Source: a bacterium
Lineage (GTDB): Bacteria > Hinthialibacterota > Hinthialibacteria > Hinthialibacterales > Hinthialibacteraceae
Assembly: GCA_041946805.1 (NCBI GenBank)
Contig: JBHGBC010000001.1
Coordinates: forward strand, 135,588-199,587
Length of the DNA: 64,000 bases
Direction of reading: 5' to 3'
The notes below the pieces were generated by a model. The model saw only the letters and a list, made by a program, of their open reading frames with translations, did not search any database and was not told where the DNA came from. The position numbers and the translations under genes are program-made. Positions 7,332-50,080 of the stretch are shown in pieces (the stretch's first letter is position 1; each line of letters starts with the position of its first letter).

Positions 7332-7604
7332 GGTTCATCCGGTCAGTGCGTACATTTTTCGGCAAACAGCGGGTGAGATCCAATCGCGGTAACCGGAGAA
7401 ATCATCACCAGCCCCTCTCCCTCTGGGAGAGGGCCGGGGTGCGGGAAAGCCTTCCCGCCGCGCTATGACTCCCCGGATTGTGTTTCCCCATCCCGAAATC
7501 CATATGAGTCCCCTTCAGGGACGGCTTTGAAGCAGCCCAGCGGTTCATTCCTGGGCCCAATGACTCTAGTGTCCTCACATCCCGGATGATCCAAAAAAAA
7601 GACC

Positions 7605-10111: not shown

Positions 10112-10133
10112 CGTGTCCCGTGTTCCCTTCCCC

Positions 10134-11165: not shown

Positions 11166-11428
11166 GCGGTTGGTCTGCGTGAATCCCCCAAGTCCCCTCT
11201 TCCTCTGGGAGAAGGTCAGGGTGAGGAAATATTTGCCGGGGCGGACCTGGCTTACTCAGCCAGGTTCGTCCTCCCATCCCGTAGGGGCACGATGCAATGT
11301 GCCTCTACTATACATTCGGCTCACCCGGAGGTTCGCCCTCCCGTTCCTCGCCACGGCCCTTGGCCTTTAAGGGAGGGCGAGGCTCCCGCCGGGCCGGCTG
11401 TTTTGGCATGGTTTATGAATGGGGCGCC

Positions 11429-12481: not shown

Positions 12482-13207
12482 GTCCCCTTCTCCCACACGA
12501 GGGAAAGCGGCTCCCTCTGAACATCCGTTCATGCTTGAACAGTCTCTCATACGGTACGGAGGATTGCCGGGTGTGTCAAGGTTCAATCCCGGGAATAGCG
12601 AACGAGGGGAGAGGATTGATTCTTTGCGGTTGTATTGCACGTGTCATCCCCGCGCAAGCGGGGATCCAGGTAATCGGCTCCTGGGGAAGAGCGACGCTCC
12701 CTCCGAGCCGTTGGCTTCCACAATGCGGCTGGCATAGTAGCGGCTCCCCTGGTGAATCGCCTTCCCATTCCGTGCAAGAAATGGCTAGCCAAGGATTTGA
12801 AATGAACGAAAATTATTAGTACGTTGATCGGTGAGAAGCATGATCCTCTATAAAGAATGCGACGGACCTTGATCCAAGCCCATGGCCGCCGGAACGTATC
12901 AACCAAGGCTCTTCCGGCAAGCGCGTCACTTTTTTACCCGATGCCCGGTCCGCCTCTCATCGAGGTGATCGAGGTGAAACACCCCAAAATTCCCTCTCCC
13001 TCTGGGAGAAGGAGTCTATTCATCTCATACAAGGGTCAGGGGGAGGGCGCTTTCGAATGGACCTTGGGATTATCCATCCTACATGGAAGTGGATTGAACC
13101 GCATTGTCAGTAACATGTACACACTTTCCGGATGCGCCATAAAAAAGCGCCGGGACTGACACGAAACAGCCCCTCGATTCGTATTATAGAGTAGTATAGA
13201 GATTCCC

Positions 13208-14758
13208 ATGACGCCTGAGCTCGAGTGCTGTTACCGGGACTGTCTGAGTGAGAACCAAAAACTGGAGATCGATGCATCTGTCCGGGAAGGAGAAGTTTTT
13301 GTCTGTCCATGTGAAAGAAAACGAGTGGTGGTTTGGCGCGATACTGGAGAAAAGAAGGTTCTCTTCCCACTCGGCCAGCGCTATCATCCCCTGACAGGCC
13401 AAGTACTTACGAATAAACCGCCGATCATCTCGCAATTCCGCGGCGAATCCCGGGGCGGCTTGGGATTTTGGGAATCCAGCGCGGACGATCTCCCCGATTT
13501 GACCTACGATCCTTTCCCCGTTCCACCCGCGGCCGGCAATATTGCCCCCTTGCACCACGATATCCTCCAAGTCCCTCCACCCGCTGTCGGGGGAAGTTAC
13601 CTCGCCCACCGGGCCTTGGACGCGGCGCAGTGGTATTTCTGGTCCCTGGCCACGGGACGGGTGGCGCTCCAGGTATCCGGGGGGGAAGGCTTGGGTCTGG
13701 CCGCCGCGCCCATCGGCGAAATCAGCGGCCTCGGACTCTTGGTCAAACCGGATGAGTTCCATCATTACGCCGTTCTCCCCGATCTGGATCCCAATCCCTT
13801 GATCATTAAGTTGTCATCGCCCGCCTGTCCCAACGCCGCCCCGTTGATGACCGCCCAGATCCGGACCGGAGAGGATGCTTTTGAAGCCCGGAAAGTGTTT
13901 GTCGCCGCCGCAACCGGGCTGCACTGGTTCGATTTCAACGCGTGCCCGGTTCCGGGCCAAACCGTACGCTTCCAGGAATGCCAGAACTGGACGGGTGATC
14001 CCCGGTTGTTTTGGTCTCCCGTGTATTTTCCGGATGCGAATGAATACGGGACCGGGGCGGTGGTGACCTTCCACGCGAACGGCTGGGCGTATGTGACCTG
14101 GCTGGACCGCCGGGGCGTTCCCGCGGGGGCGGACTCCATTCGCATCGCGGAAGGCGACGGTCATGTCCTGTTGCCGCCCGTGGTGACGCGCGACGGCCTG
14201 TGGTGCCTCACGGTCTCACCCCGGTCCGCCCGGATCGGACTGATCGGCAGTCCCGGCCTTTTGCGCAATCCTCCGGACTGGCGCAACGCCGGCTGGTTTC
14301 CCTGGATCATGGAACCGGAAGACCCCATTCCGGCCGATGCCTGGGCCTGGACTCCGCTGGTGGCCGACAGCCGAAGGATGCATGGCGCCGGAATCAGCCG
14401 TGTGGTCTTTTTGCATAACCGGGAACTGGTGTTCCTGGACCGCAACCGCTTGAATCTCGACCGGGGCAGCCGGTTTTCCACCATCCATCCCAATCCGCTT
14501 CCGATAGGATTCAAGGCCGGCGCGGCGTTCGCCCGGGCGCGGAAGGAACATATTTTCCTGTTCGATCTCCTCACGGGCCGCGTCTGCCTTTTCGACGCGC
14601 GGAACCGGACCTGGACCGAACACGCGGCTTTGAATCCGGCGGTATTGTCGAATCTCCTGGGCGGGCCGGTCTGGTGCGGAGATAGTGTGATCTGGCCGAC
14701 ACGCACGGGATTGCATAAAATCAAGATTCATACAAATCATGGGGTGGCCGCGGGATGA
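13208..14758 (+). CDS. Hypothetical protein, Cys-rich N-terminus and PQQ/BamB-like beta-propeller-like C-terminal region
   Basis: 516 aa; blade-like motifs WSPVY, LPPVV, WTPLV and GGPVW..VIWPTRTGLHKI; stop overlaps next start (ATGA). Confidence 0.65.
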   Translation: MTPELECCYRDCLSENQKLEIDASVREGEVFVCPCERKRVVVWRDTGEKKVLFPLGQRYHPLTGQVLTNKPPIISQFRGESRGGLGFWESSADDLPDLTYDPFPVPPAAGNIAPLHHDILQVPPPAVGGSYLAHRALDAAQWYFWSLATGRVALQVSGGEGLGLAAAPIGEISGLGLLVKPDEFHHYAVLPDLDPNPLIIKLSSPACPNAAPLMTAQIRTGEDAFEARKVFVAAATGLHWFDFNACPVPGQTVRFQECQNWTGDPRLFWSPVYFPDANEYGTGAVVTFHANGWAYVTWLDRRGVPAGADSIRIAEGDGHVLLPPVVTRDGLWCLTVSPRSARIGLIGSPGLLRNPPDWRNAGWFPWIMEPEDPIPADAWAWTPLVADSRRMHGAGISRVVFLHNRELVFLDRNRLNLDRGSRFSTIHPNPLPIGFKAGAAFARARKEHIFLFDLLTGRVCLFDARNRTWTEHAALNPAVLSNLLGGPVWCGDSVIWPTRTGLHKIKIHTNHGVAAG

Positions 14759-16521
14759 GCCGATCGAAATCCGAAACACGCGTGTATTGCACAACATTGC
14801 TCCTGACTGTCCTGCTGGGAGGAGCGCTCCTGGCGGCGCCCGCGGCCCGGCCGGGTGCCGAACCGTTCGCCCGCCGGGTCATTCTGCTGTGGGACGGTTC
14901 GCAAAGCATGGTGAAACGCCTGGACCGGGAGAAAATCCCGCCGGCGACCGTTTGGATGGCGCGCGACACCGACCTGGAACGCCTGGAACGGTACGTTTAT
15001 GAGCTGCTGTTCCACGATTCTCTCCCGCCCGTCACGGACCGGGACATGATCGATACGCATACGAAGGCCCCCACGCCTCCCCTTCCCCTCGCGGATGAAA
15101 ACACCCTCCTGACCGCCTACCTCTTCAACAGCGAGCGCGCTCCGAAGTTTTCCATGCGGCGGGAGATCCTGCCTCCCGGTCCGGACCGGGAAGAGCGGCT
15201 GCGGCAATTTCTCCCCCGCCCGAACCAGGCGGATCCGCGATACATGGGCCTCGAAACCAACTTGGTGCGGCCCCTGCTGGAGGCGGTTTATGATCCGGAA
15301 ATCACCGGCCGGATCGTCCCCCATACGGACCAAACCTACCTGGTGATGGTCACCGATGATGTTCAGGAATCATTGGAACCCTACACGGATCAATCCGTCG
15401 TGCAAAAGCATCTTGAACTGGATCACCGCCGTCAAAAATTGCTGACGTACGTGGTGAGCTGTCAACCCAGCCTTCTGGAAAAAAGCCATCAGATTCTGAT
15501 CAGTCTCTACCAAATTTTTGACAAACCGATCGCGGCCACCCCCACGCCATTGGTCACCGCCGCCGCGGCCACGCCCACTCCCGAATCCACCCCCACACCC
15601 GTACCGGATGCCGGCCCTCCCCCTCCGGCGGTGATCAAGGCCGTCATCCCGCCCGATGGCCTCGCGGTCCTGCTGGAGGACGGCCGCCTGATTTCTTCCC
15701 CCTTCCGCGTGGAGGTGGATGGGAATCCCAGCCGCTCCGCCCCTCTGCCATCCCTCGACGCGAGCCTGCTGGATCAAGGAAATAATGTGATTGCCACCGG
15801 CCGCCTCGAGTTTCCGAACGCGACGGCCTTGCCCGCGGAAGGCCGCCTGGTCTTCGCCACGTTTTCCGAAAAGGGGTGGCCCGCCGCGGGACGACTAGCC
15901 TTGCCGGCCCCCGCCGCGGACAACCAGTGGATTCAAGGCGTGAATCCCCTCCAGTTCCCCGCGCGCTTCCAGTCGCATGAATTGCTATGGCTGATGGCGG
16001 GACTCCTGGGATTGGCCGCGGCCGGCTCCGGCGGTTTGGCCTACGCCCGCTGGCGGTTGGCGCCGCCCCGGAGCGTGCGGATTCAATTCACGTTGAATCC
16101 CAACAGCGCCGCCGCGCGCAAGCTGAAGCCCCTGGTCCTCCAGGCGGACGAGCCGGTGACCTTGGGAGAAGACGAACGCGCGGATGGCCCCGCTTTTCCC
16201 GTGAATTGCGAACCGTTGACCTTGGTCTACGAACGGGGGTGGTTCTCGGGGAAGGTGCGTATCTACAATGAGGGAGTCTCGGCGCTGGATTCCACCGGTC
16301 CGGACGAGGAATGGGCCGGGGAATCCATCGGCGCGCCCCCCCGCGAGTGGACGATTCCCTTGAAGCAAGACGAGGGGGGCAGCCGCCTGATCGTTCTCCG
16401 GGAAGCCGATTCCGGTTCCCGGACATGGGAGGTCCGCGTGGAGGCCCGGCCGGGCGAGACCATGGCCGGCGCGGAGGGTTCCGGAAAAAACTGGGAATAC
16501 GAAGGGCCGGCAGGAGGTTGA
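14755..16521 (+). CDS. Single-pass membrane protein with extracytoplasmic vWA-like domain
   Basis: Signal peptide; MIDAS-like LLWDGSQS...ETN...VMVTDD; Pro/Thr linker; TM LLWLMAGLLGLAAAGSGGLAYA; beta-rich cytoplasmic tail. Confidence 0.75.
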   Translation: MSRSKSETRVYCTTLLLTVLLGGALLAAPAARPGAEPFARRVILLWDGSQSMVKRLDREKIPPATVWMARDTDLERLERYVYELLFHDSLPPVTDRDMIDTHTKAPTPPLPLADENTLLTAYLFNSERAPKFSMRREILPPGPDREERLRQFLPRPNQADPRYMGLETNLVRPLLEAVYDPEITGRIVPHTDQTYLVMVTDDVQESLEPYTDQSVVQKHLELDHRRQKLLTYVVSCQPSLLEKSHQILISLYQIFDKPIAATPTPLVTAAAATPTPESTPTPVPDAGPPPPAVIKAVIPPDGLAVLLEDGRLISSPFRVEVDGNPSRSAPLPSLDASLLDQGNNVIATGRLEFPNATALPAEGRLVFATFSEKGWPAAGRLALPAPAADNQWIQGVNPLQFPARFQSHELLWLMAGLLGLAAAGSGGLAYARWRLAPPRSVRIQFTLNPNSAAARKLKPLVLQADEPVTLGEDERADGPAFPVNCEPLTLVYERGWFSGKVRIYNEGVSALDSTGPDEEWAGESIGAPPREWTIPLKQDEGGSRLIVLREADSGSRTWEVRVEARPGETMAGAEGSGKNWEYEGPAGG

Positions 16522-16527
16522 AAAACG

Positions 16528-16923
16528 ATGCAAGCGATTCTCAATCAGATCCACCCGTTTGGGGTGGCCTTGTGGATGATCGGAGGCTTGGCGGGAGGCC
16601 TGTTTATCCTCCAACTCGCCCTTCCCCGGGGCCGGGCGGGGATCCGGGGCACGCCCGAATCGCGGGTGTATCTCTGGACGATCAACTTCCTCCGGCTGCA
16701 TCTGGCGGCGGGCATCGTGCTCGGGGTGTATGAATATATCCAGTGGTTCACTAAACTGGGCATGACGGACCATTTTTACGACTGGTGGCCCATGTTGCTG
16801 ATTTACCTGGCGTGCCTGGCCGTGGATTTCGCCCTGCTCCGGCTGTTGTTCACGTCCAAATACCGGCGGTATCTCCAATCCGCGGACCGCCTGGGGAAAA
16901 CGGGAGGCCAAGAATCATGGTGA
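16528..16923 (+). CDS. Small multi-pass membrane protein
   Basis: 131 aa with three hydrophobic segments; GGAGG RBS; stop overlaps the tubulin-like gene start. Confidence 0.75.
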   Translation: MQAILNQIHPFGVALWMIGGLAGGLFILQLALPRGRAGIRGTPESRVYLWTINFLRLHLAAGIVLGVYEYIQWFTKLGMTDHFYDWWPMLLIYLACLAVDFALLRLLFTSKYRRYLQSADRLGKTGGQESW

Positions 16924-19900
16924 CGCCCTCGGTTTACATCGGCTTGGGCACTTCGGGGACGGAAATCATCCAGGGCGTCCGGCGTTTGTTGTACGATGAA
17001 TACGGCGTGCCCGGCCTGCCCTGTATCCGTTTTCTCAGCCTGGAAACCCATACCAATCTCCCCTCCACGGACCAGGATGTCTACGTGCGCGACGAAAACC
17101 AGGCCTGGCAGCAACTGCAGGTCATTTCCCTCGCCCTGACGCGCATCCAACTGCAACAATTGCGATCCCGGATCGATCCCTCCGGCCAGGAGTATCACCC
17201 CGGCTGGGCCGAGTGGCTCGATCCCCAGGTGCTCATGGGGACCGCCTTCACCACCGGTGCGCGGGGCTGGCGCATGGCCGGCCGCCTCTGCCTGTGGGCC
17301 AATTGGCGAAACGTGTACGAGGGATTGATCCAAACCATCCAAAGCGTCATCCAAGGCCGGGACGAAACGATCTCCTTGCTGGAGAGGCATTACGCCACGA
17401 AAGGCATCAACCGGCCCGACGGCGACCTGGTGGAACCGGCCCTCCGTGTTTACATCTGCGGATCGCTGTGCGGCGGCACGGGTTCCGGCATCTTCTGGGA
17501 GACCGGCTTCCTCGCGCACGAAGCGGTCGCCGACGCCGCCGTGGGGCACGATCCCGACATCCATGGCGTTTTCACCGTGGTGGACCGCAAAACCGCCAAC
17601 AGCCTGCGCCAATCCGATATCGTCTGCTCCATGAACTGCTGGGCGGCGCTGCTGGAATACGACTACTGGGCCAGCGGCCAAAACGCCTATCAGGTCCTGC
17701 ATCCCCTGGATCCCAACAGCCGGTTCCCGGGCATCCCCAACGATTTCGGCCCCTACCAGGTCTTCAACATCATCTCCCCCTCCAACGACAGCGGCTACCG
17801 TTCCGTCAGCTGGAACGGACAGGACTACGACCTGACTCCGCTGCACGTCTCCATCTCCACCTCGCTCTACTTGGACCAGGTGCGTGAAGTGAAAGCCCGC
17901 AAGGACGGCGACCGCGCGCAATACGCCATCACCAACCAGATCAACAAAAAATCCCCCAACGGCCTCTACCGCCAGCGCATCCAGACCTATGGCTTGTCCG
18001 GATTCTACTATCCCAAGTTCATGATCGCCTCGGCGGCCGCCTGCCAACTGGGTAAGGAACTCGTGGAACACTGGTGCGGGGAGGGCAACCGGAACAACGC
18101 CATGCGCGCCGCCCACCGGGATTGGGAAGAGATCTACCTCCTCATCCGTTCCCAACTGCTGCGCGTCGGAAACCTGGATTTCATCGAACACATGCGCAAT
18201 CACCTGCAGGACGCGTTCGACAGCATCGGACCGAAGAACCTGCAGGCCTTGATCAACTACCTGAAAACGCAGGTCCACGTCCCGGTGCTGCCCGGCGCCC
18301 CGCTCCTCCTCGAGGCCTTGCAGCCCAACGGCGCGCTCCACCGCCATTTCGACCAGGAAGCCAACAGCCTGATCACCCTCCTGGTGACGGAAATCACCAA
18401 AAAAGTGGAGCACCATATCAACGCCATCCAATCCGGGGGAACCACCAGCCTGGACGAAGTCGTGCAATACCTGGAGGAATTGCCCCAGCGGATGCGGGAG
18501 ACGATCAACGGCCTTCCCGGCCCCGCCGGCTTGCGGGCGTTCCATATTCCCTGGCCTTCCCTCCGGGGGATGGCCCTGCGGTTCGGCGAGATCAGCAAGG
18601 ACTGGTGGCTGAAGGCCACGTTCTCGCGGAAGGCGATCCAGAAATACTACCTCGCCAAGGCCCTCGAGGAGGTGCAGGAAAAGGTCAAGGAGCAGATCAA
18701 CCAACTGGCCGACCGGGTGACACGGATGATTTGCGAAAAAGCGCTGCCCCGCGTCATCGGCGACTCCGGTCTGGGCGGGTTCCAATCCTCGACGCTGTAC
18801 GACGACAACCGCGAGCGGTTGAACCGCCTCCGCAACCGGATCGCGCCCGCCCTGCAAAACCGCTGGCAGGACATCACCCGCGAGCGCACCTTCGGCAGCC
18901 TGCGCATGGTCACCAGCCGCGATACCATCGCCCAGGACGCGGAACTCCTGGCCAACGCCGTGCGCGCCCGCCTGCGCCCCGCCGAAGTCTACCGCGAACT
19001 GCTCACGGACGGGACGCAATCCGTGAGTTTCTATCATTTCCTTTGCCAGGAAGCCGGACAGATCGAACAAAAACTGATTCAGTACTACCAGCCGGAATGC
19101 TGGCGGGCGGCGCAATCGGTCAATATCCTCAATCAATTGGCCACGGACCGCTATTCCCTGCAAACCTTGCTGGAAACCGCCCGCGGTTCCCATCCCTGGC
19201 TGCAGTTCACCGGCGGCCAGGTCCCCGACAAGGGCTGCGACGAACCGGATATGATCATCGGGCCGCGGGGATCGGAAGCCCGGCTGAACCAAATCGTCAA
19301 CCAAGTGCGGACCCAGGATGACAACCTGCCCGCATTTCAGCCGGTGGAGGGCATCCTCGACAACATGGTGGTGTTCTACCACGAGGCGGCCGCGCTCTCG
19401 CTCCAGGATTGGCAACTCGAATCCACGCTGGACAACCTCCTGCAGCACGGGGGACGGACGGAAACCGACGACCCCGTCATGACCCCGTTCAATAACCATT
19501 ACACCCACAAGCTGGGTACTCTCCGCTATCATCCCAAGCTGCGGCGGATCATCGCGGATTTGAATTTCTGGATCGAGGCCGCCACCCTCTTCCGGGAACC
19601 GATGCTTACCCAGGATTTTCTCTACCTCGATCCCCAAAACGGGCATCTCACCTACGTCTATACCTCCAAGATGGGCCTGCGGGACACCGTGGACCTGACC
19701 GTGGAGGGCGAGATCTCCGAATTCGCCCGGGCCGATGACGGCGAGGCGGCGCGCGGATTCATCGAACGCGTGCGGGAAGTGCTCAATGACCTGGGGCGGG
19801 ACAACGTGGAAGACCTGGGTAACGCCTTGTGGGAGGCCCAGGCCGATGACCGGAATCAACAACGGAAGATCAAGGAAACCACCGAACGGGTAATCCACCA

Positions 19901-19976
19901 ATTATTTCCCGGGGAATCGCGGAGGCGGACGGAAAAAACGCCCCCGCCGGCCCTCCCCCCCCGCAACGAACCATGA
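16917..19976 (+). CDS. Tubulin/FtsZ-superfamily GTPase (Tubulin_2 / FtsZ-like family) with long helical C-terminus
   Basis: VYIGLGTSG, GARGWRMAGRL and the tubulin signature GSLCGGTGSG (17472-17489); ATG 16917 with GGAGG RBS; ~1019 aa. Confidence 0.88.
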   Translation: MVTPSVYIGLGTSGTEIIQGVRRLLYDEYGVPGLPCIRFLSLETHTNLPSTDQDVYVRDENQAWQQLQVISLALTRIQLQQLRSRIDPSGQEYHPGWAEWLDPQVLMGTAFTTGARGWRMAGRLCLWANWRNVYEGLIQTIQSVIQGRDETISLLERHYATKGINRPDGDLVEPALRVYICGSLCGGTGSGIFWETGFLAHEAVADAAVGHDPDIHGVFTVVDRKTANSLRQSDIVCSMNCWAALLEYDYWASGQNAYQVLHPLDPNSRFPGIPNDFGPYQVFNIISPSNDSGYRSVSWNGQDYDLTPLHVSISTSLYLDQVREVKARKDGDRAQYAITNQINKKSPNGLYRQRIQTYGLSGFYYPKFMIASAAACQLGKELVEHWCGEGNRNNAMRAAHRDWEEIYLLIRSQLLRVGNLDFIEHMRNHLQDAFDSIGPKNLQALINYLKTQVHVPVLPGAPLLLEALQPNGALHRHFDQEANSLITLLVTEITKKVEHHINAIQSGGTTSLDEVVQYLEELPQRMRETINGLPGPAGLRAFHIPWPSLRGMALRFGEISKDWWLKATFSRKAIQKYYLAKALEEVQEKVKEQINQLADRVTRMICEKALPRVIGDSGLGGFQSSTLYDDNRERLNRLRNRIAPALQNRWQDITRERTFGSLRMVTSRDTIAQDAELLANAVRARLRPAEVYRELLTDGTQSVSFYHFLCQEAGQIEQKLIQYYQPECWRAAQSVNILNQLATDRYSLQTLLETARGSHPWLQFTGGQVPDKGCDEPDMIIGPRGSEARLNQIVNQVRTQDDNLPAFQPVEGILDNMVVFYHEAAALSLQDWQLESTLDNLLQHGGRTETDDPVMTPFNNHYTHKLGTLRYHPKLRRIIADLNFWIEAATLFREPMLTQDFLYLDPQNGHLTYVYTSKMGLRDTVDLTVEGEISEFARADDGEAARGFIERVREVLNDLGRDNVEDLGNALWEAQADDRNQQRKIKETTERVIHQLFPGESRRRTEKTPPPALPPRNEP

Positions 19977-22900: not shown

Positions 22901-23125
22901 AATCAGGCGGTCCTCGATCAAGATTACCGGGTGTTGGCGGAGATCCCCGTGACTCCCCCCGGCTGGAATCACGGAGACATCCGCGGTGCGGCGTTGAAAA
23001 TCACCTTCTCCGAGGATGAGCAAATCACCGTGACGCTTGTCCCCGGCGCTTCCACGGCATCCCGCGTCGAATCCGTCCGGATCTGGCCCCGCCCGGCTTC
23101 GGAGCCGCGCGGCCGGGCGGAATGA
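19973..23125 (+). CDS. Hsp70/actin-like ATPase fused to N-terminal Zn-ribbon and Ig-like domains
   Basis: CPC..FYCGFCG; GIDFGNTNT (21149-21175), LTHP, LDEATA, FDFGGGTID, FGGERIT, MSGQSSRLP and EAVALGAA; C-terminal beta region resembling a substrate-binding domain (SBD). Confidence 0.85.
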   Translation: MSENRVERCPCALRWPVNPATDFYCGFCGRRMRALEAVPLPKVQAPWIMGGEFLQVDLEIRNTGLVPLTVTGLEWVSPRPPEPGILAAALPNPLALPPQTESHVSLRVAMIPEAKSRTKIVLQLRLGPADTGPGRVQLNPIEIPLAPPPRVEVSGLQEGRILPVERLEESFTLSLTAADQDIMLAEENQVVLKTRDGKEEVPLDPAVPVSLRLLRSRQPVEFQFSSPAALFPGQTRDRDVFVALRIQGMATPVRTDIFTLRKQIPAEFTLQLELPDGMTPRVLKGYQRSFGLLLLNRSPRIFSLQKITVDLPAYLREQGLLAHVLPARTPPFFVEKVKRIELGTLVLNTERWSGGSTRSEIRITAEVENGPAVHTPLPIHIVVSRPDYNRPLGIDFGNTNTSAAHFDDRNLPLVIPLTPLVHWPSLRNQSINPHVVATLVQYAPAGDSDSDWTAQSVRVADVGEPVRARMKQNPIHGRRVVSFFKPRIGFGEAYRFPLMPDVRNKTFDSVTADYLQRVLLAVEEETGLTHRRLVLTHPVRFWTRQREALRAALFHAIRERKEDPEEWTVSFLDEATAVILYHTIGRYVLGHAVPEEGPAEQETVLVFDFGGGTIDMTLCEVSRDLETGHCLIRHLDFDGTGEFGGERITELIAQRLYERACEAANGLESPRPGESPGAAVALRESGEEIFGGKKKSGKSSAPAKFHHAVNTKSGAVVIPYGRWDVYPTVWDQHTKTAIDNYVKLYYGAEDLKIDSLDPSENEAGDPAVFDQIDRQFEVTTVPANDNHAPPVRFSFPYRFKNDRDGLKQAVLTGLEGALEMVRKMIGRFRERARLEGNPLPRLSRVLMSGQSSRLPFIQEALRQAVQEANEGEPVEVELLNPLKEAVALGAAIYGALDDLAQVEMNRCGRVHIFLQKPGGAIGAGAFVPVFRRLSPLPATVICSSINQEGAIHYPLYYGMRIRVIESFVDLSDRRELNQAVLDQDYRVLAEIPVTPPGWNHGDIRGAALKITFSEDEQITVTLVPGASTASRVESVRIWPRPASEPRGRAE

Positions 23126-23140
23126 AGGAGGAGCCCGCCG

Positions 23141-24175
23141 ATGGGCGTTTTGGCTGTCGATTTCTGCCAGGTTCCTCCCCAATGGGCGGACCACGAAGGC
23201 CGAACCGGCCAGGCGCAGGATGGCTGGTGGGGTATCCCGCGGAACGGCGGTATCGCCTGGGACCAGGACGTGGACTCAAAAAGAGATACCGAATCCAGCG
23301 GAGAGAAATCCTTCATCGCCCACCCGGCCCAGGCGGTGGATTCCATGCCTCCCGCGAGCGCCGGGACGGCCCTCTACCCCCTGTTCCGCCGTGTGTTCGC
23401 GGCCCGGCCGGGGAGTGGGGACGAGTGGCTGGTTTTATTGCTCCCGGCGGGCGCGTCTCCCGCCAGCGGAGCTTCCTTGCGGAACTCGGCGCGGCGGGCG
23501 GGATGGCCGGGCCCGGTTTTTCTCACGGACGGCGCGGTGGCGCTGGCCCTGGCCCACGCCTGGAAGAAATCCCGCGCGGCGGCCGTCTTCACCGTGCTGC
23601 GGGACCGGATCTTGGCCGTGGAAGGCTCCTTGATGACCGTCCACGCGAGTGGAAACACGTTGGCGGCGGAGTTGGTGTGCCAATGCCGCCGGGAGGATAA
23701 AAACGAAACGGTCCGCGTGATCCGGGAGACAGGATGGGATCCCGGCACGGTAATGGATGGCTCTTGCTTGGATCCTTCCCGCGGTTCTCTGGAGAACGTG
23801 GCCCGGATGATGAACGAAACTCGCGGGGGGAAAGTGATATTGGAAATAAAAAGGATGGGTGTCTTGGGAACGCGCGCCCGGCAATGGGACTTGTGCCCCC
23901 TGATCGGCGAGGACGCGCCCGTCACCGCCGCCCGGGAATACGAGCTCCAAGCCGGAAAAGACGCTCTGGCGGCCTTGGAATTTTGGTTTGGCTACAATGC
24001 GTCGGCCTTGCACCCGCTCGCCGGAATCCGCTTGACCCGCGGCCGCCTGGATCCGGCCCCGGCCAAAGCGCGGTGCCGCGTGGTCCGGCGATTGAACGGC
24101 GATGTCCAGGTCACGGCCGAATGGAACACCGGAAGCGAAAGCCGGGACCTTTCGTTTCCGATACTCTGGCTCTAA
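23141..24175 (+). CDS. Degenerate (probably inactive) Hsp70-like protein
   Basis: LAVDF; LVLLLPAG..LRNSARRAGW..LTDGAVALALAH parallels DnaK VITVPA..AGRIAGL..INEPTAAALAY; C-terminus resembles the DnaK SBD; AAGGAGG RBS. Confidence 0.65.
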   Translation: MGVLAVDFCQVPPQWADHEGRTGQAQDGWWGIPRNGGIAWDQDVDSKRDTESSGEKSFIAHPAQAVDSMPPASAGTALYPLFRRVFAARPGSGDEWLVLLLPAGASPASGASLRNSARRAGWPGPVFLTDGAVALALAHAWKKSRAAAVFTVLRDRILAVEGSLMTVHASGNTLAAELVCQCRREDKNETVRVIRETGWDPGTVMDGSCLDPSRGSLENVARMMNETRGGKVILEIKRMGVLGTRARQWDLCPLIGEDAPVTAAREYELQAGKDALAALEFWFGYNASALHPLAGIRLTRGRLDPAPAKARCRVVRRLNGDVQVTAEWNTGSESRDLSFPILWL

Positions 24176-24187
24176 GGAGGGGGGATC

Positions 24188-25723
24188 TTGCGAGGCGATA
24201 ATTCATACAGTTCGTTTTCCGGCGGTTCGCCATCTTATTCCAAACAGATGACCGACAAGCAATTTATTTTGGAGTACAGCGTCACTCCCAAGTCGTCCAA
24301 GTATCCCAACCTGTTATGGAAAGGATTTCAGGTCCTGACCGAGGAACGAGAAGACCATACGATCGAGTGCGCGCTTTCGGTGCCCCGGTTCATCAACAAC
24401 CTCAAGGTCATCAATGTCTTCATCGACCATCCCTCCGTGCCGGCGCAAGGCCGTTCCTTTTGGGTGGATCCGGAACGCAACGCCTTCATCTCCTCCCATT
24501 CGTTGATCCTGCATCCCATGGACCAGGCGGCGGCCGAGGGCAAACTCTACCTCATTCAGGAAGGCAATATTCAATCTGAGTACCAGCTCCGTATTTCATG
24601 CCGGATGAAGCAGGGCGCACCCTCTCCGCCCGCCTCCCCTCCGGCTTCTTCCCGCCCTCCGGAATCTTTTCGCGGCCCGGCCCGGAACGTCGTGACCTCC
24701 ACGGCGCCGCGGCCTTCCGAAATCCGGCCGGAATCCAGGTCCCCGGCGCCCCCGGCGGATCCCCAACTGTCCGTCTTGATCGACACTCTGAGCCGCAAGG
24801 TGGAAGCCTTGGCCGCCATCACGCAAAACATCAACACCCGCATGCAGGAAATCAAGATGTCCCTGCACGATATCCGCGGCCAGCTGGAGGTGTTGCAGCA
24901 AGGAATGAAAAACAACCTCCCCGAAACCGCCTTCGAGGATTTCAAGGAAACGCTGCGCCAGGTTTTCACGAATCTGGCCCAGAAAAAATGCGGGGAAATC
25001 ACCGCCTCCCGCAAGCCCGCCCTGGCCGGCAACCGCTACTTCCAGATGCTGGACAATTTCGTGACCGGGCTCAAAGCCGGCCACGCCGCCCGGATCCGCC
25101 TGGAAAACCTGCATCCCGAGTTTCACAATGAAATCCACCGCTTCGCGGCCGATGTCAATCAGACCTTGGGATGGCTCTCCGGACCGGATGTCGAGGTTTA
25201 TTTCGCCAAGCTCGACATCCCCCCCTACGCGAAATTCCTGAAATCCGTCACCCAAAAACAGATCGACGAGTGGCGGCGGAATCCGGACCCGCTCCAACCG
25301 GCGGATTTTGACCTGGATTCCCACGTCCGGCGGCGGTTGTTCTCTCTTTTTCAGCGGGAATATGAAAACCTGCTGGAAGACCTGTCCGCCGGAGCCGGCG
25401 GTGAAGAACCTATGATCCAATCGTATGCAAACATCGTCAACGAGATTCTCCCCCGGCATTTCGACGGCATCGAAACGTTGGAAGCCCAGGGGAAATCCCG
25501 CGATGAAAATATGTTCGAGCTCGTCAATCTGTATTTCACCAGTGTGTTGAATCCGTTGGGCCTGGAGTTGATCCCGGTGGAAGCCGGCGATCCCTTCGAT
25601 CCCCAGCTGCACAACAACGAGAACCATCTCGGCGCCTCCGGCCCGACGGTCCGGACCGTGAAAAAACGCGGCTACCGCACCGTCACCGGACAAATCATCC
25701 GCAAACCGTCGATTTTCGCCTGA
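24188..25723 (+). CDS. Coiled-coil protein with C-terminal GrpE-like domain
   Basis: C-terminal LGLELIPVEAGDPFDPQLH..VRTVKKRGY..IIRKP matches the GrpE beta-domain pattern; TAAGGAGG before TTG 24188 (alternative ATG 24248). Confidence 0.75.
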   Translation: MRGDNSYSSFSGGSPSYSKQMTDKQFILEYSVTPKSSKYPNLLWKGFQVLTEEREDHTIECALSVPRFINNLKVINVFIDHPSVPAQGRSFWVDPERNAFISSHSLILHPMDQAAAEGKLYLIQEGNIQSEYQLRISCRMKQGAPSPPASPPASSRPPESFRGPARNVVTSTAPRPSEIRPESRSPAPPADPQLSVLIDTLSRKVEALAAITQNINTRMQEIKMSLHDIRGQLEVLQQGMKNNLPETAFEDFKETLRQVFTNLAQKKCGEITASRKPALAGNRYFQMLDNFVTGLKAGHAARIRLENLHPEFHNEIHRFAADVNQTLGWLSGPDVEVYFAKLDIPPYAKFLKSVTQKQIDEWRRNPDPLQPADFDLDSHVRRRLFSLFQREYENLLEDLSAGAGGEEPMIQSYANIVNEILPRHFDGIETLEAQGKSRDENMFELVNLYFTSVLNPLGLELIPVEAGDPFDPQLHNNENHLGASGPTVRTVKKRGYRTVTGQIIRKPSIFA

Positions 25724-25944
25724 GATCTTCAAATGCAACAAGGTACGCCGCGGGAGTCACATTCATGCTCGGTATCGACGGGATAAAAAACGTAGGATGG
25801 ATTAATGCGCAGCGCGTAATCCATCAATATCTTGGTCATCCTGTATATCCTGACCATCCTGATTCAGTCAAAAACCGGTCCCCTCTCCCTCTGGGAGAGG
25901 GCCAGGGTGAGGGAAGACACGCGCGCTCGACCGGATGATCTTAC

Positions 25945-27264
25945 ATGACGCCCGACACCTTCCTCTCCTCCGTGTCTTATCCCGAATCCCCGGGCGGGTT
26001 TTCCATCCCCGGCCCGGCTGAGGTCCTCCTTGCCCCTGACGCGCTGTCCCAAATCAATCCCCCTTCCCTCCCCGCTCCCCAAATCGCGGTCTCGGCTGAA
26101 TTGAAATTCAGTCAGCCCCCCACCCGGCCCGTACCCGGCCCGGTTCGTCTCCATCCCCAAACCGGACAACGGGATATCGAACTACGCGTGGGCGAAGCAG
26201 GTTCCGTTTGCCTGGGCGCTCCCCGCCTGGAAGAACCGGGCTTTTACGTGTTCCAACGCCAGGCAGAAGCACGCGCGATCGATTCCGGCCGGATTGTGTA
26301 CGATATCGACACCCGGGAAGGCCTCTGGGTGCTTCCCTCGAATCCCCATGAACCACCCGCCGTGGAAACCTGGCTCTGCGGAATCCGCGGTCCCCGCCGG
26401 GACGCGGCGCACCCCTTGCCCGCGCATGGCCATCATATCCGGGTGGACCGCGAGGGGGCGCGCAGCGTGATCACCCACGATCCCGCCGTGTGGATCGCCA
26501 ATCCCCATGGGCATTCCGTCAAGTCAATGGCCAAAAAACTGAAGCCCTGGGACCTGACCGCCGATAAGGGTGGTCTCGTGTTGCGGCCGCGGCCGGATTA
26601 CTTTGCCTCCATTCCCGAGGAGGCCGTGATCTCACTCCCCCGCCTGAAATTACGTCTCCGGCTCGTTAAATACTGCTGGCCCGCGGCGCTCACGGCGGAG
26701 TTGCTTTCTTCTCCTGCCAATCCGGAATCCGCCTCCATCCGCCTCCAGTGGCGGGGGACCCGGCCGGTCCGGATCATGCTGCGCGGCGCGGGGACGGATC
26801 CGTTCCCGCCCATGACCACCGTGCTCTCCGGCGATAATCCCGAACGCTTGTTGACCATTCCACCCGCCGCCTGCGCCGGGCCCCGCCGCGGAAGCGTGGC
26901 CGTGGAATCTGACGAAACGGTCATCACTTGCCGCGTGCGGATTCTGCCGCTTCCTCCACAGCGCCGCCTGGCCTGTTATCCACCCTTGATCGTGTGGGGA
27001 GATGACGACCGGACCGTCAACGCGGGAGTGGTTTTCGCGCCGGAAGAACCGGCGGATTTCCGCGTCATTCCGCCCCCGGAAATGGCCTCCTGTGAATGGG
27101 AACCCGGCGGGCAGCCGGGCGCGTTCCGGTTTCATCTTGCCGGCCCCCGGCCCGGCCCGCCCTGGGCGGGATGCGTCACGGTGATCGACATTCATTCCGG
27201 CGCGCGCGGGTATATTCCTGTCATCCGCCTGTCAATACCAGCCATACCCGAGGACCCATGCTAA
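25945..27264 (+). CDS. Hypothetical Pro/beta-rich protein
   Basis: 439-aa ORF whose stop overlaps the start of the MotA-like gene. Confidence 0.65.
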   Translation: MTPDTFLSSVSYPESPGGFSIPGPAEVLLAPDALSQINPPSLPAPQIAVSAELKFSQPPTRPVPGPVRLHPQTGQRDIELRVGEAGSVCLGAPRLEEPGFYVFQRQAEARAIDSGRIVYDIDTREGLWVLPSNPHEPPAVETWLCGIRGPRRDAAHPLPAHGHHIRVDREGARSVITHDPAVWIANPHGHSVKSMAKKLKPWDLTADKGGLVLRPRPDYFASIPEEAVISLPRLKLRLRLVKYCWPAALTAELLSSPANPESASIRLQWRGTRPVRIMLRGAGTDPFPPMTTVLSGDNPERLLTIPPAACAGPRRGSVAVESDETVITCRVRILPLPPQRRLACYPPLIVWGDDDRTVNAGVVFAPEEPADFRVIPPPEMASCEWEPGGQPGAFRFHLAGPRPGPPWAGCVTVIDIHSGARGYIPVIRLSIPAIPEDPC

Positions 27265-28988
27265 GCCAAGTAATACTCTACCTGTTCTCAACTCCCGCCT
27301 TGCGCGAATACCTGGATTCGCTTTCCAGCATCGCCTGGAGCCTGATCGAAGCGATCGCCTGGATTCTCCTGGCGGGCGGGATCACCATGGGAATCCATGT
27401 GGCCCGGCGGATGCTCCTCTTGCTGCGCCTGCGGGGAGTGGCGCGCGTCATCCAAAATACGGACTGGCAGCCGCTGGCCATCCCCCAACGCTTCGCGCAG
27501 CTGAAGCCTATCTGCAAGCCGGCCGCGGGCCTGCGCTGGGCCGTCGAGACCATGGAACGGCTTTCATCCCGGCAATATTCCAACCGGATGGAGGAGGTCA
27601 TCGACCTGTGCGTGGCGCGTTACCGCCCGCCCGAAATTTACACCCTGCTGCCCCGCCTCGCCATCATGACCGGCCTCATGGGCACCCTGATCGGCCTGCT
27701 GATCGCGGTGCAGGATGTGTATCTGAAAGTGGAATCGCTCGACAGCATCGACAGCCTGCGCGCTCCCTTGCACTCTACCCTTAGCGGGCTCAGCACCGCC
27801 TTTGTGACCACCCTCGCCGGGGTTTTCGCCGCCGCCGTGTTAAGCCCCCTCCTGGTTCTGACCCGCTGGAGCTCGTTCCAGGTCATCAACCGCCTGGATG
27901 CTTTATTGTCCACCGAGATCCTGCCCCTGGTCACACCTCCCAAGCGCGCGCGGAAACAAACCCTGGGGCAAATGGTGGAGAAAGTCAGCCGCGCGGTGGT
28001 CGAAAACACCATGGGCGGCCTCGTGCGCGAAACCGCCGCCGGCGTGAACGAACTGAGTGTCCGCCTGGCCGAGGCCGTCAACGCCGCCGCCAGCCGCCAG
28101 GCCGATATGCACGGCGTGGTGTTCAAACTGGAGCAGGCGGGCGAGGGCCTGCAAGAGGCCGCCGGCAAAATCCACGGCGCGTTGGGGCAACTGAACGAAT
28201 ACTTGCTCACCCTGACGCAAACCATCGCCCGCCTGACGCCCGAAGCCGAAATCCGCGAACAAAACGCCCGGCTGCTGGGCGCGATCGTCAAGGAAGAACT
28301 TTCGGAACTGGGGGATGAACTGCGCCGCTTCAACGCCGATTGGTCCGAACGCCTGCGGCAGTTCCCCGCGGGCCTCGAACCGTTGGGCATTCTTATCGAC
28401 AAGGCCGTCAAGGATCTGCGCGACGACCTGGGCTCTTTGCCATCCCGCGTCATCGCCCACTTGCAGCCCATCACCGAGCAACTCAAGGATTTGAATGTTT
28501 TGGCCCAAAACGAAAGGGAATGGTGGCGGGCCCGGGCCGGAAAAGTCCCCGAAGATCTGTCTCAGGCCCTCTCCCGTCATCTCGAGCCCCTGCAGGCCGC
28601 CGCGCTGGAAGCGTTGAGAAACCAAACCGCGCGTCTGGACGAGATCCGCGGTGTGCTGGAGCCTTTCTCAGGCGTCCTGGAGCGCATCGTCCAGCGGATC
28701 GAAGAGGGGTATCTCTCGCTGCCCACGGTCTCGGTGACCACCCCGGCGGGAGAGGCTCCGGAACCAGCCGGAACGGCGGGCGCGAATCTGGATGAAATCA
28801 AAGCGGGTCTCTGGCAATTGGGCCAGCAATCCCTGCGGACCCTCACTGCCGTCCGCGAGTCGGCCAACGAATACCGGCAAATGCACCAGGACCTGCGGCA
28901 GCTCATAGGCCTGCTCCAGCCGGACCGGCGTCCTTTGTGGCGGCGGATGCGTTCCTGGATTCAGGGAGACGGAGACAAACCGTCATGA
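27258..28988 (+). CDS. MotA/TolQ/ExbB-family membrane protein with long helical tail (ZorA-like architecture)
   Basis: PRLAIMTGLMGTLIGL and LSGLSTAFVTTLAGV channel helices followed by ~350 aa of amphipathic helix; ATG 27258. Confidence 0.85.
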   Translation: MLSQVILYLFSTPALREYLDSLSSIAWSLIEAIAWILLAGGITMGIHVARRMLLLLRLRGVARVIQNTDWQPLAIPQRFAQLKPICKPAAGLRWAVETMERLSSRQYSNRMEEVIDLCVARYRPPEIYTLLPRLAIMTGLMGTLIGLLIAVQDVYLKVESLDSIDSLRAPLHSTLSGLSTAFVTTLAGVFAAAVLSPLLVLTRWSSFQVINRLDALLSTEILPLVTPPKRARKQTLGQMVEKVSRAVVENTMGGLVRETAAGVNELSVRLAEAVNAAASRQADMHGVVFKLEQAGEGLQEAAGKIHGALGQLNEYLLTLTQTIARLTPEAEIREQNARLLGAIVKEELSELGDELRRFNADWSERLRQFPAGLEPLGILIDKAVKDLRDDLGSLPSRVIAHLQPITEQLKDLNVLAQNEREWWRARAGKVPEDLSQALSRHLEPLQAAALEALRNQTARLDEIRGVLEPFSGVLERIVQRIEEGYLSLPTVSVTTPAGEAPEPAGTAGANLDEIKAGLWQLGQQSLRTLTAVRESANEYRQMHQDLRQLIGLLQPDRRPLWRRMRSWIQGDGDKPS

Positions 28989-29686
28989 GCGCGGGAAGAC
29001 ACGCCCACCGGCGCGACATTCTCTACTCCGGCCCGGCTCTCGAGAACCTGGAAGACATCTGGCCGGTTTTTTCCGACATCGCCATTTCCATCATCCTGTT
29101 TTTGATCTTCATGCTGGTGGCGCAATTTCTCGAACTCTCCCAGGTCTTCGACACCTTCGCCCGCAAACGCATGCAGCAGACCATATGGCAATCGCTGGAC
29201 CGCAATCCGTACTTTCACGACTTGATCCAGGGCGGCAACCTGACCATGACCGTGCACGGGACCTTGCAGCGCTTCGGATTCGCCTCCGACATCGTCTTCG
29301 TCCTGGGCGAGGCCGACCTGCAATCCCGGGGGCGCGAGGTCCTCACCCAGTTCGCCCGCTTCCTCAGCGCCCAGGGCCCGCCGGACCTCTACATCGAGGT
29401 CGAGGGGCACACCGACCGCATCCCCGTCACCAGCGGCCGCTACCGCGACAACTGGGAACTCTCCGCCGAGCGCGCCCTGACCGTGGTCCGCCTGTTCCAA
29501 CAACTCTCCGCCGACCCCGCCTCGGGAGTGACCTTCAATCCCCAAAACATCTCGGCGATCGGTTACGGCGAATTCCGCCCCCTCGAGGATAAGAATGAAT
29601 CCTTCCTCAACCGGCGGATCGAAATCCGGCTGGATTACAGCAAAATCCCGATCCGTTCCGGCAACACCCCGGCGGGAACCAATTGA
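28985..29686 (+). CDS. MotB/OmpA-family protein (ZorB-like)
   Basis: WPVFSDI TM with conserved Asp; VEGHTD, NWELSAERA, GYGEFRP and NRRIEI; ATGA overlap with upstream gene. Confidence 0.9.
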   Translation: MSAGRHAHRRDILYSGPALENLEDIWPVFSDIAISIILFLIFMLVAQFLELSQVFDTFARKRMQQTIWQSLDRNPYFHDLIQGGNLTMTVHGTLQRFGFASDIVFVLGEADLQSRGREVLTQFARFLSAQGPPDLYIEVEGHTDRIPVTSGRYRDNWELSAERALTVVRLFQQLSADPASGVTFNPQNISAIGYGEFRPLEDKNESFLNRRIEIRLDYSKIPIRSGNTPAGTN

Positions 29687-29904
29687 GGCAGCCCGGGCGT
29701 CCCATCCGGGAAAGGCGTGGATAGGGCATAAGATTTTTCCTTGGAGGGCGAGGCTCCCGCCAAGCCGGTCTTCCCGGATTGTTGGCTCACCAGCAGGTTC
29801 GCCCTCCCAATCCCTTCTCCCCCCGGGAGAGGGCCAGGGTGAGGGAAAGCCTTTGCCGCCCGGGCGGCCCGCCTGCCCCTCCTGATACCGGTGACACCCT
29901 CCCC

Positions 29905-32721: not shown

Positions 32722-32846
32722 GGTGGAATTCTCCCGAGAGAAAGAATGTTCGGATTGAGTGTACAAACTCCCCGCCGGCCTTAAAAGAGATAATTGCCTC
32801 GTTTTTTTGTAATTATAACGATATATCGATTTAATTGTTTTTTGAC

Positions 32847-32875
32847 TTGACCCTCGCACTTATATTTGATAAATT
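32847..32875 (+). promoter_or_regulatory. Putative sigma70 promoter of first paralogue
   Basis: TTGACC-17 bp-TAAATT with TG extension; conserved upstream of the second paralogue. Confidence 0.55.
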
Positions 32876-50029: not shown

Positions 50030-50051
50030 GGTTCTCTCTCCCTCTACATGG

Positions 50052-50080
50052 TTGACATTCACATTATATGTACCTATAAT
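50052..50080 (+). promoter_or_regulatory. Perfect consensus sigma70 promoter
   Basis: TTGACA (50052-57), 17 bp, TATAAT (50075-80), upstream of the DUF2188 ORF. Confidence 0.85.

Follow-up and report, generated by a model that had tools for sequence, protein, structure and literature searches.

A ten-gene bacterial locus joining a ZorAB-type stator, a tubulin-like GTPase and an Hsp70 set may be a new type of cell-envelope alarm or defence

Introduction

Zorya defence systems of types I to III combine ZorAB with ZorCD, ZorE or ZorFG, partners that are all nuclease-like, and an aspartate in the transmembrane (TM) segment of ZorB is important in these systems, according to the accessible text of PMC11890865. 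Operons in which the tubulin-like GTPase FtsZl1 accompanies von Willebrand factor A (vWA) and OmpA-domain proteins were predicted by Makarova and Koonin (2010, PMC2875224), who proposed a role in membrane remodelling from gene context only. The main text of that article names a diverged P-loop GTPase, Ser/Thr kinases and an OmpA-domain protein as frequent, not obligatory partners. A further class, the DO-GTPase/GAP1 conflict systems, occurs with tubulin or with HSP70 and GrpE themes (Kaur, Burroughs, Iyer and Aravind 2020, PMC7159879). In the accessible text of that work the two themes are non-overlapping and mainly found in Firmicutes and Actinobacteria, and tubulin/HSP70 assemblies are proposed as effectors. 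Here, we analyse a locus of ten genes (g1-g10) at positions 13208-29686 of a 64,000-nt stretch of contig JBHGBC010000001.1 from a bacterium of the Hinthialibacteraceae; the whole stretch is called the window below. The locus encodes a predicted ZorAB-type stator together with a tubulin-like GTPase and a three-part Hsp70 set, and the same three modules recur together in distant phyla.

Results

Ten genes form one operon-like unit

The ten open reading frames (ORFs) lie head to tail on the plus strand (Table 1), as a preliminary description of this DNA had reported, and the overlaps and ribosome-binding sites that it listed were read directly in the sequence. ATGA overlaps mark the starts at 14755, 19973 and 28985, and overlaps of 7 nt those at 16917 (ATGGTGA) and 27258 (ATGCTAA). 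Ribosome-binding sites of the AGGAGG type stand 7-9 nt 5' of the starts at 16528, 23141 and 24188, the last of which is a TTG start. Translational coupling is found at five of the nine junctions and strong ribosome-binding sites at three further ones, including g6/g7 with its 12-nt spacer. The sole sizeable gap in the run (222 nt) separates g7 from g8. Coupled junctions, strong ribosome-binding sites and opposite-strand neighbours unrelated to the locus together mark the ten genes as a single operon-like unit. Counts from a simple promoter and terminator scan were not above those of shuffled sequences.

A tubulin-like GTPase and a Zorya-like stator

The product of g4 matches Tubulin_2 (PF13809, E 5.1e-31) over residues 50-427 of the longer ORF, and beyond the GTPase domain it carries a C-terminal extension of ~600 aa. 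The CGGTGSG signature stands at YICGSLCGGTGSG, and residues G186, G187, S190, N240 and E247, belonging to the nucleotide loop and the T7-type residues, are invariant among 10 sequences. The Pfam match and the GGTGSG signature together secure the earlier label of a tubulin-signature GTPase. The protein is rare, with 11 matching clusters among 5.8 billion. Sequence comparison with the PDB gave no tubulin or FtsZ match, the family being detected by the Pfam model alone, and no relative of g4 was found in the phage collection searched. A canonical FtsZ is encoded elsewhere in the same genome.

The stator is encoded by the last two genes. The g9 product passes the Pfam MotA_ExbB cut-off (23.0 bits against 22.9) and matches 12 ZorA models of PADLOC in all, with ZorA3 at E 1.3e-14. 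The ZorA models of NCBIfam stay below their cut-offs; the match to antiphage_ZorA_2 (E 2.6e-6) scores 26.8 against a cut-off of 100. TM segments are predicted at residues 22-40, 134-152 and 177-195. The g10 product matches OmpA (PF00691, E 1.9e-12) and ZorB3 of PADLOC (E 5.8e-19), and its TM segment (28-46) includes the ion-coupling aspartate D31 in the motif 'FSDIAIS'. This aspartate is kept in 27/27 ZorB-like proteins encoded beside tubulin-like genes. In PADLOC and NCBIfam, the best matches of the stator are Zorya models, over the models of flagellar MotAB, Tol and Exb. With the MotA_ExbB, OmpA and PADLOC ZorA/ZorB matches, the ZorAB-like MotA/MotB pair of the preliminary description is upheld, and g9/g10 is a predicted ZorA5B2-type, ion-driven and peptidoglycan-anchored stator with a long cytoplasmic tail.

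A three-part Hsp70 set

The g5 product scores above the Pfam cut-off for HSP70 (PF00012; 24.6 bits against 20.6), which is weak by Pfam alone. A profile of 16 g5-family sequences matches DnaK structures at E 7.2e-49 and covers DnaK residues 4-450, so that the nucleotide-binding domain (NBD) and part of the beta substrate-binding domain (SBD-beta) align. The front part of ~385 aa consists of a four-Cys zinc ribbon followed by ~350 residues of Ig-like beta domains. Among the 16 sequences, which come from several phyla, C9, C11, C25, C28, D395-F-G397, E574, D608xGGGTxD615 and G849 are invariant, and so are the phosphate-1, phosphate-2 and adenosine motifs (DFG, DxGGGTxD, GQSS-type). No alpha-lid was detected in g5. 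The protein is an Hsp70 with intact ATPase motifs and predicted to be active, in agreement with its earlier naming as an Hsp70-like ATPase.

The neighbouring g6 product has no Pfam match and no PDB profile match by sequence, and its hhalign comparisons with the g5 family are not significant (E 0.54 and 0.11). A first AlphaFold2 model from 3 sequences reached a predicted local distance difference test (pLDDT) score of 42 and was discarded. With the alignment enlarged by five more distant relatives from 1.84 billion representatives, the model reaches pLDDT 86.8 and a predicted template modelling (pTM) score of 0.87. All top Foldseek matches of this model are Hsp70 proteins, with DnaK at E 2.7e-12, and they include 3c7n and 6sr6 (Hsp110:Hsc70 and the ribosome-associated complex, RAC). 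The modelled fold of g6 is thus that of Hsp70. Neither a GGG-T-D nor a DxG-T/S motif is present in g6, Y285 is the sole invariant column among 8 family members, and the phosphate-binding positions of g5 are not kept, as judged from a correspondence drawn by eye. From these degenerate nucleotide-binding motifs, g6 is probably not an ATPase. The earlier label 'degenerate Hsp70' is right because the modelled fold is that of Hsp70 and the phosphate-binding positions are not conserved.

The C-terminus of g7 resembles the GrpE beta-domain in profile matches. Residues 443-506 align to positions 94-158 of the Pfam GrpE model (E 0.002, 18.3 bits, below the 25.8 cut-off), and NCBIfam GrpE is matched at E 3.5e-4, far below its cut-off. 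A profile of 6 g7 sequences matches GrpE structures in the same region, again sub-threshold (3a6m at E 0.0029, 8gb3 at E 0.02), and a g7 paralogue in locus L025 matches GrpE at E 4.3e-4. The GrpE-like label given earlier thus gains from matches that repeatedly fall in one region, but every match of g7 itself is sub-threshold. We provisionally regard g7 as GrpE-like and as a putative exchange factor for g5.

At least three, perhaps four, canonical adjacent pairs of Hsp70 and GrpE genes occur elsewhere in the genome (contigs C265, C260, C21 and C36). Because these pairs and the canonical FtsZ are encoded elsewhere, the g4-g7 copies are extra and form a private set. The Hsp70 systems of the window's genome are an unusually large set. 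No J-domain protein is encoded in the ten-gene locus. Paralogues of g7 also stand alone, away from tubulin and stator genes, in genomes G017 (L025 9260-10747, plus strand) and G002 (L026 76-957, plus strand), where they adjoin unrelated genes (Na/Ca exchanger, RmlD, ABC transporter). G017 has a further copy in its own ten-gene locus, and this one is more distant from the window's g7 than the L025 paralogue.

The gene set in related genomes

Searches covered 41 related genomes, of which 20 belong to the window's family. Each of g4, g8 and g9 is strongly matched in the same four genomes, which are 4 of the 20 family members. No match to g8 or g9 was found in the other 37, and g4 had one further weak match among them (G002, E 1.7e-4). 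The order g1-g10 is kept in G001, of the same genus (loci L028 and L027), and in G017, of a third genus (L010). In G014, g1-g6 (L008) and g7-g10 (L024) are both present on different contigs, and g1-g6 end against convergent cytochrome c biogenesis genes. The set therefore consists of two separable halves. The putative exchange factor g7 lies in the stator half and its putative client g5 in the tubulin half, which ties the halves functionally. Throughout the window's family, g8 accompanies g7, g9 and g10.

Some of these copies are disrupted. In L010 (contig C140), g1, g2, g3 and g6 are each found in 2-3 ORFs and in-frame TGA codons occur at the g4 start, while the ZorA-like gene of L027 (7094-8921) is frameshifted near residue 210. 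The split genes in G017 and the frameshift in G001 reflect either decay of the system or assembly errors.

Recurrence of the three modules across phyla

Pattern scanning based on the g4 alignment yielded 78 tubulin-like loci from many phyla, whose ORFs were searched by iterated hidden Markov models (HMMs; jackhmmer). A stator was counted only where both subunits are adjacent because the g9 profile also matches coiled-coil proteins. Across all 78 loci, 29 have a g5-family Hsp70, 24 have a ZorA- and ZorB-like pair, and 19 have both. Of these loci, 35 are 18 kb or longer; the Hsp70 and the pair are found in 18 each of the 35, both together in 16 and neither in 15. PADLOC ZorB models match 10/10 representative partners, and ZorA models match 10/13, with the channel region included in 4. 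Conservation of the gene set together is thus seen in G001, G017 and G014 and in other phyla, and linkage of the ZorAB-like pair to the tubulin/Hsp70 block, as the preliminary description had envisaged, holds in several phyla; in G014 the two are unlinked, still within the same genome. Because stator, tubulin and Hsp70 recur in different gene orders across phyla, they are probably one system, and this is our main argument.

Poribacteria provide the fullest comparison. A g5-family Hsp70 is present in 14/15 of their loci, a ZorAB pair in 14/15, and both with a g2-family gene in 13/15. The order, given for L034 and checked for 13-14 loci, runs ZorA, ZorB, a zinc-ribbon protein, the g2 homologue, a small TM protein, the tubulin, the Hsp70, an unassigned protein of ~415 aa, a pair of GrpE-like paralogues and a protein weakly resembling transglutaminases. 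This 11-gene form corresponds to the same set, except that the stator has moved upstream. Profile-profile comparison (hhalign) links g2 (probability 96.8%, E 3e-10), g5 (probability 100%) and g3 (E 3.7e-5, probability 71%) to their Poribacteria counterparts, and g7 to the two GrpE-like proteins at E 8e-5 and 7e-4. No hhalign link to any Poribacteria family was obtained for g1, g6 or g8. The Poribacteria gene at the g1 position (P1) starts with zinc ribbons and has no detectable sequence similarity to g1. For the protein at the g6 position (P6), a PDB or Pfam match was found in 0/14 members, and hhalign gave E 0.03 against the g5 family and E 0.35-0.41 against g6. Homology of g6 and P6 is unproven, since these sequence-only comparisons are non-significant. 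In the phylum containing the Poribacteria, the system is present in 18/121 genomes.

Two side features of the Poribacteria loci concern their distal genes. The GrpE-like tandem paralogues (L034 17645-21263 and 12 other loci) match each other at hhalign E 6e-84, and the first has a TM segment. The signal-peptide protein that follows them has sub-threshold matches to the transglutaminase core (E 0.017 and 0.084).

In Armatimonadota, one cyanobacterium and unlabelled metagenome-assembled genomes, the stator lies downstream of the tubulin gene. Matches to g9 in Limisphaerales were rejected as stators and not counted, as they cover only the coiled-coil parts of ZorA, JetC and LmuB models. In these loci (L040, L052, L053 and L056, at ~14300-16400 on the minus strand), the tubulin-like gene is followed by a convergent gene for a coiled-coil protein of ~675 aa, and no ZorB-like gene was detected. 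Here the tubulin-like gene may have a different set of partners. Distant Tubulin_2 relatives are carried by megaplasmids, where their neighbours are Cas6 in Deinococcus and CHAT/caspase genes in Nostoc. On plasmid pRadio2 of Deinococcus radiophilus (L106, 10349-18101), a distant tubulin-like gene is followed, beyond an IS630 insertion, by a hypothetical gene, a gene for a coiled-coil protein annotated as 'methyl-accepting chemotaxis protein' and an OmpA-family gene, with Cas6 and a VWA gene nearby. This organism is cultivable, and the locus is a possible tractable relative of the stator-tubulin link.

Membrane proteins, unassigned proteins and surroundings

The g2 product has hydrophobic segments at 10-28 (signal or anchor) and 410-428 (TM). 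In its exported region, DxSxS (D47, S49, S51) and residues Y195, V199 and D201 are invariant in 8/8 family members, and a later VTD(D/G) motif is conserved. None of the 8 members matches any vWA HMM, and no PDB match was found by sequence. From its motifs, the exported domain is provisionally vWA-like. Of the surface vWA protein described earlier, the DxSxS and VTD(D/G) motifs and the exported region stand, but no vWA model or structure match does. For g3, the multi-pass membrane protein is retained, but the count of three TM segments is not, since two are clear (13-31 and 90-108).

The g1 product has no TM segment, and its Cys pairs lie at residues 7 and 33. Orthologues in L028 and L008 are 69% and 39% identical, respectively. 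Neither g1 nor g8 has a Pfam, NCBIfam or PADLOC match, even with E values as high as 5 admitted. In ESM Atlas, g1 scores 0.89 at best, below the tool's 0.9 bar, which makes it a lead only; with no family match, the earlier description of g1 as propeller-like is dropped. The g8 product is probably all-beta. Its ESM Atlas values (features at most 0.81, own model pLDDT 0.45, TM-score at most 0.34) are all under the 0.9 bar. Orthologues of g8 lie between g7 and g9 homologues in L027, L024 and L010. A Walker A motif is absent from g1, g2, g6, g7 and g8.

The genes flanking the locus are unrelated to it, and further out the window encodes metabolic and regulatory functions (HemN, signal peptidase, TrpAB, AccD, two-component genes). 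A repetitive extragenic palindromic (REP)-like intergenic repeat, with the core CTGGGAGAGGGCCAGGGTGAGGG and a complementary CCCTCTCCC arm 5' of it, has 8 copies in the window at up to 3 mismatches, where 0 are expected by chance. One copy lies inside the g7/g8 gap, one just 3' of g10, and a looser copy 5' of g1. A further region of the window has a GC content of 0.51 against ~0.60 and carries an HTH_3 and Peptidase_M78 (IrrE-like) gene amid small unassigned ORFs, a pattern common among prophage and mobile-element regulators.

Table 1. Genes of the locus and other features of the window, with window coordinates
Feature	Position	Strand	Length (aa)	Description
g1	13208-14758	+	516	Cytoplasmic; N-terminal Cys cluster (CCxxxC...CPC), beta-rich body
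g2	14755-16521	+	588	Bitopic membrane protein; exported beta-rich region, provisionally vWA-like (metal ion-dependent adhesion site, MIDAS, motif); cytoplasmic tail of ~160 aa
g3	16528-16923	+	131	Small polytopic membrane protein
g4	16917-19976	+	1019	Tubulin/FtsZ-like GTPase, Tubulin_2 = FtsZl1 family
g5	19973-23125	+	1050	Zinc ribbon, Ig-like beta domains, Hsp70 NBD and beta C-terminal domain
g6	23141-24175	+	344	Minimal Hsp70-fold protein (modelled); reduced NBD and SBD-beta-like sandwich
g7	24188-25723	+	511	Beta N-domain, Pro/Ser-rich linker, helical region, provisionally GrpE-like C-terminal domain (~405-510)
g8	25945-27264	+	439	Pro-rich cytoplasmic protein
g9	27258-28988	+	576	ZorA-like (MotA/ExbB/TolQ-type) predicted channel subunit; cytoplasmic coiled-coil tail of ~380 aa
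g10	28985-29686	+	233	ZorB/MotB-like; one TM segment, OmpA-type peptidoglycan-binding domain
Upstream flank	8594-12640	-		ABC sugar transporter
Downstream flank	29905-32859	-		Convergent FG-GAP/TPR/ASPIC gene
REP-like repeat	5766-5788, 7423-7445, 11205-11227, 25891-25913, 29823-29845, 39065-39087, 40207-40229, 56443-56465			Intergenic copies
Low-GC region	47920-50762			HTH_3 and Peptidase_M78 gene

Discussion

A probable envelope-spanning system

That the ten genes are one conserved system is, in our judgement, very likely. Our best explanation of them goes further: they would encode one system that spans the envelope, is a variant, coupled to ZorAB, of the predicted FtsZl1 (Tubulin_2)/vWA/Hsp70 systems and works by the following mechanism; to this we give about an even chance. 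The stator, perhaps with the exported MIDAS domain of g2, would sense when the wall or membrane is disturbed, in the way ZorAB acts in Zorya. The ZorA-like tail and the adaptors g7 and g8 would then relay the signal into an Hsp70 cycle composed of the active g5, the inactive partner g6 and the exchange factor g7. This cycle might load, remodel or release the tubulin-like protein, upon which a GTP-dependent polymer would form or dissolve at the membrane. The output would then be the tubulin-like polymer and no nuclease, and the polymer could act by membrane sealing or remodelling, by obstructing an invader or by halting the cell.

A role in conflict or defence is plausible, and we place it slightly under an even chance. 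The patchy distribution (4/20 genomes of the family and 18/121 of the Poribacteria phylum) is like that of accessory and conflict systems and argues for such a role. The same is true of the stator scores, which are best against Zorya, and of the megaplasmid relatives near Cas6 or CHAT/caspase genes. The ten-gene set may represent a new type of alarm or defence at the cell envelope. In its most specific form, the proposal describes a fourth Zorya-like immunity, with a cytoskeletal effector in place of a nucleolytic one. A wall-anchored rotary stator would detect a breach of the envelope and, via its tail and a private Hsp70/GrpE cycle, set off the GTP-dependent assembly of a tubulin-like polymer, which would stop the invader or close down the cell. 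We put this form forward tentatively, as a rather doubtful one.

Several observations weigh against the proposed defensive system. No recognisable toxic or nucleic-acid-targeting domain occurs in any of the ten proteins (Pfam, NCBIfam, PADLOC), and PADLOC recognises only ZorA and ZorB in the locus. The known Zorya types all use nuclease-like partners in the accessible text of PMC11890865, and the locus is without such a domain. No defence genes adjoin it, and its neighbourhood in the window is metabolic and housekeeping and not a defence island; the Poribacteria locus L034 likewise has housekeeping neighbours and no adjoining defence genes. The compared genomes of the family come from three related genera and are not independent, so few independent events lie behind the co-occurrence within the family. 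Several genes are split in G017, and g9 is frameshifted in G001. Among the long tubulin-like loci, 15/35 have neither the Hsp70 nor the stator partner, so the tubulin family also works in other contexts. The label vWA for g2 comes from motifs, and the label GrpE for g7 from sub-threshold matches.

The same parts could serve an envelope machine outside immunity, in which a proton- or sodium-driven stator and a tubulin-like cytoskeleton under chaperone control serve membrane remodelling or repair, or move g2 as a surface adhesin. Gliding machineries that unite a motor, a cytoskeleton and a vWA adhesin are an analogy for the variant in which g2 is moved. The lack of a toxic effector domain, the housekeeping neighbours in the window and in L034, the predicted parts, which are all membrane-bound or cytoskeletal, and the good preservation of the locus in 14/15 Poribacteria loci are consistent with such a machine. 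So is the membrane remodelling predicted for operons of FtsZl1, vWA and OmpA in the main text of PMC2875224. However, the patchy presence (4/41 relatives and the 18/121 genomes already noted) argues against a core function, the stator is nearest to Zorya models and not to flagellar MotAB, Tol or Exb, and distant relatives sit on plasmids beside CRISPR and caspase/CHAT genes. Taken together, a non-immune machine appears rather unlikely.

A second alternative splits the locus into two independent adjacent systems, an FtsZl1-type one (g1-g6) and a new Zorya-like one (g7-g10) with g7 and g8 as effectors or adaptors. G014, with its halves on different contigs and g1-g6 ending at the convergent cytochrome c biogenesis genes, fits this division, as do the g7 paralogues that stand alone in G017 and G002. 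The sole sizeable gap of the run falls inside the second half, between g7 and g8. Against the division, the halves co-occur in 4/4 carriers and neither is found in the other 37 genomes, save for the weak g4 match in G002. In Poribacteria, Armatimonadota and other lineages, the stator again lies with tubulin and Hsp70, in different orders. A GrpE-like gene also makes little sense without the Hsp70 of the other half, and the proposed boundary at g6/g7 has a strong ribosome-binding site and a spacer of only 12 nt. We consider two separate systems improbable. That the locus is instead one of the 'GTPase-centric' DO-GTPase/GAP1 conflict systems, whose themes in the accessible text of PMC7159879 (tubulin homologue, HSP70, GrpE, a second HSP70-only protein, zinc ribbons, membrane association) it has in common, is largely refuted and very improbable, as PF19993 has 0 matches genome-wide, no Walker A motif is present in g1, g2 or g6-g8, no Pfam family matches g1, g6 or g8, and the themes as printed are non-overlapping, belong mainly to other phyla and include no MotA/TolQ.

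Returning to the single envelope-spanning system, the original interpretation holds for conservation, linkage and the absence of a described match; the propeller of g1 is unsupported, and vWA is a motif-level label. Three machines that are each well studied singly, the flagellar or Zorya-type ion-driven stator, the tubulin/FtsZ-like GTPase and the Hsp70-GrpE cycle, are wired together in several distant phyla. Should the system be immune, Zorya would widen from a stator recruiting a nuclease to a stator controlling a cytoskeletal polymer, and the 2010 and 2020 predictions on FtsZl1/vWA and tubulin/HSP70 conflict systems would gain an experimental footing. If true, cytoskeletal immunity would set a precedent in prokaryotes for immune assemblies of the cytoskeleton that are gated by chaperones. 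If the system is not immune, it would represent a machine linking envelope and cytoskeleton in phyla about which little is known (Omnitrophota-labelled soil bacteria, sponge-associated Poribacteria and Armatimonadota). Either way, it predicts a defined client for a dedicated Hsp70 and a natural bacterial pairing of inactive and active Hsp70 paralogues. The class combining tubulin, Hsp70 and stator is of high interest and purely predicted so far.

Comparison with known systems

The locus and Zorya both have a MotA-like subunit that combines 3 TM segments with a long cytoplasmic tail, and a MotB-like subunit with a TM aspartate and an OmpA-type domain. An envelope-anchored stator that signals to cytoplasmic partners is probably a logic common to both. 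Unlike in Zorya, the stator genes of the locus stand at the operon end, and their partners are a tubulin-like GTPase and an Hsp70/GrpE-like set. No ZorC, ZorD, ZorE, ZorF or ZorG is present, with 0 PADLOC families for g1-g8 and no nuclease, helicase or HNH domain in Pfam or NCBIfam, and the locus is therefore not Zorya I-III.

The operons of Makarova and Koonin, in the main text of PMC2875224, likewise place a Tubulin_2 GTPase by a MIDAS-motif membrane protein, with an OmpA-domain protein and many lineage-specific membrane partners. They differ in that this main text has 0 occurrences each of Hsp70/DnaK, GrpE and MotA. Among the frequent partners listed there, the locus has an OmpA-domain protein (g10), and no Walker A GTPase and no kinase domain were found by Pfam or motif scan. 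These operons are the nearest printed description of the locus.

The DO-GTPase systems in the accessible text of PMC7159879 resemble the locus in having a tubulin homologue whose C-terminal extension is helical, HSP70 accompanied by GrpE, a further gene for HSP70 only, zinc ribbons and membrane proteins with vWA domains, the GrpE and vWA counterparts in the locus being provisional. Unlike these systems, the locus joins the tubulin with HSP70/GrpE, adds a ZorAB-type stator and occurs in other phyla; a MotA/TolQ component has 0 occurrences in that text. The only GTPase-like protein of the locus is g4. Nothing in the whole genome, whose completeness is 96.8%, matches DO-GTPase2 (PF19993), with a control genome positive, and DO-GTPase1 was not searched by accession. 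GAP1, for which Pfam should include models, was not found, in that no Pfam family matches g1, g6 or g8. As no DO-GTPase was found, the locus is not a DO-GTPase system.

Compared with canonical DnaK-GrpE(-DnaJ), g5 has a zinc-ribbon and Ig-like front and no detected alpha-lid, g6 is only 344 aa, g7 has extra N-terminal domains within its 511 aa, and a J-domain protein is missing from the locus. The pairing of a putatively inactive with an active Hsp70 (g6/g5) would by analogy recall Hsp110:Hsc70 and RAC.

No described system matches the whole: PADLOC returns only ZorA and ZorB, DO-GTPase2 was not found, and targeted full-text searches, with subscription papers and supplements outside their scope, gave no paper joining ZorAB with tubulin or Hsp70. 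The preliminary description knew of no characterised system that combines all three modules. PADLOC and the literature agree, but the parts were already printed as predictions in the accessible texts of PMC2875224 and PMC7159879. What appears to be new is a ZorAB-type stator coupled to a tubulin-like GTPase and a three-part Hsp70 set, built from components and some pairings that had been predicted in print.

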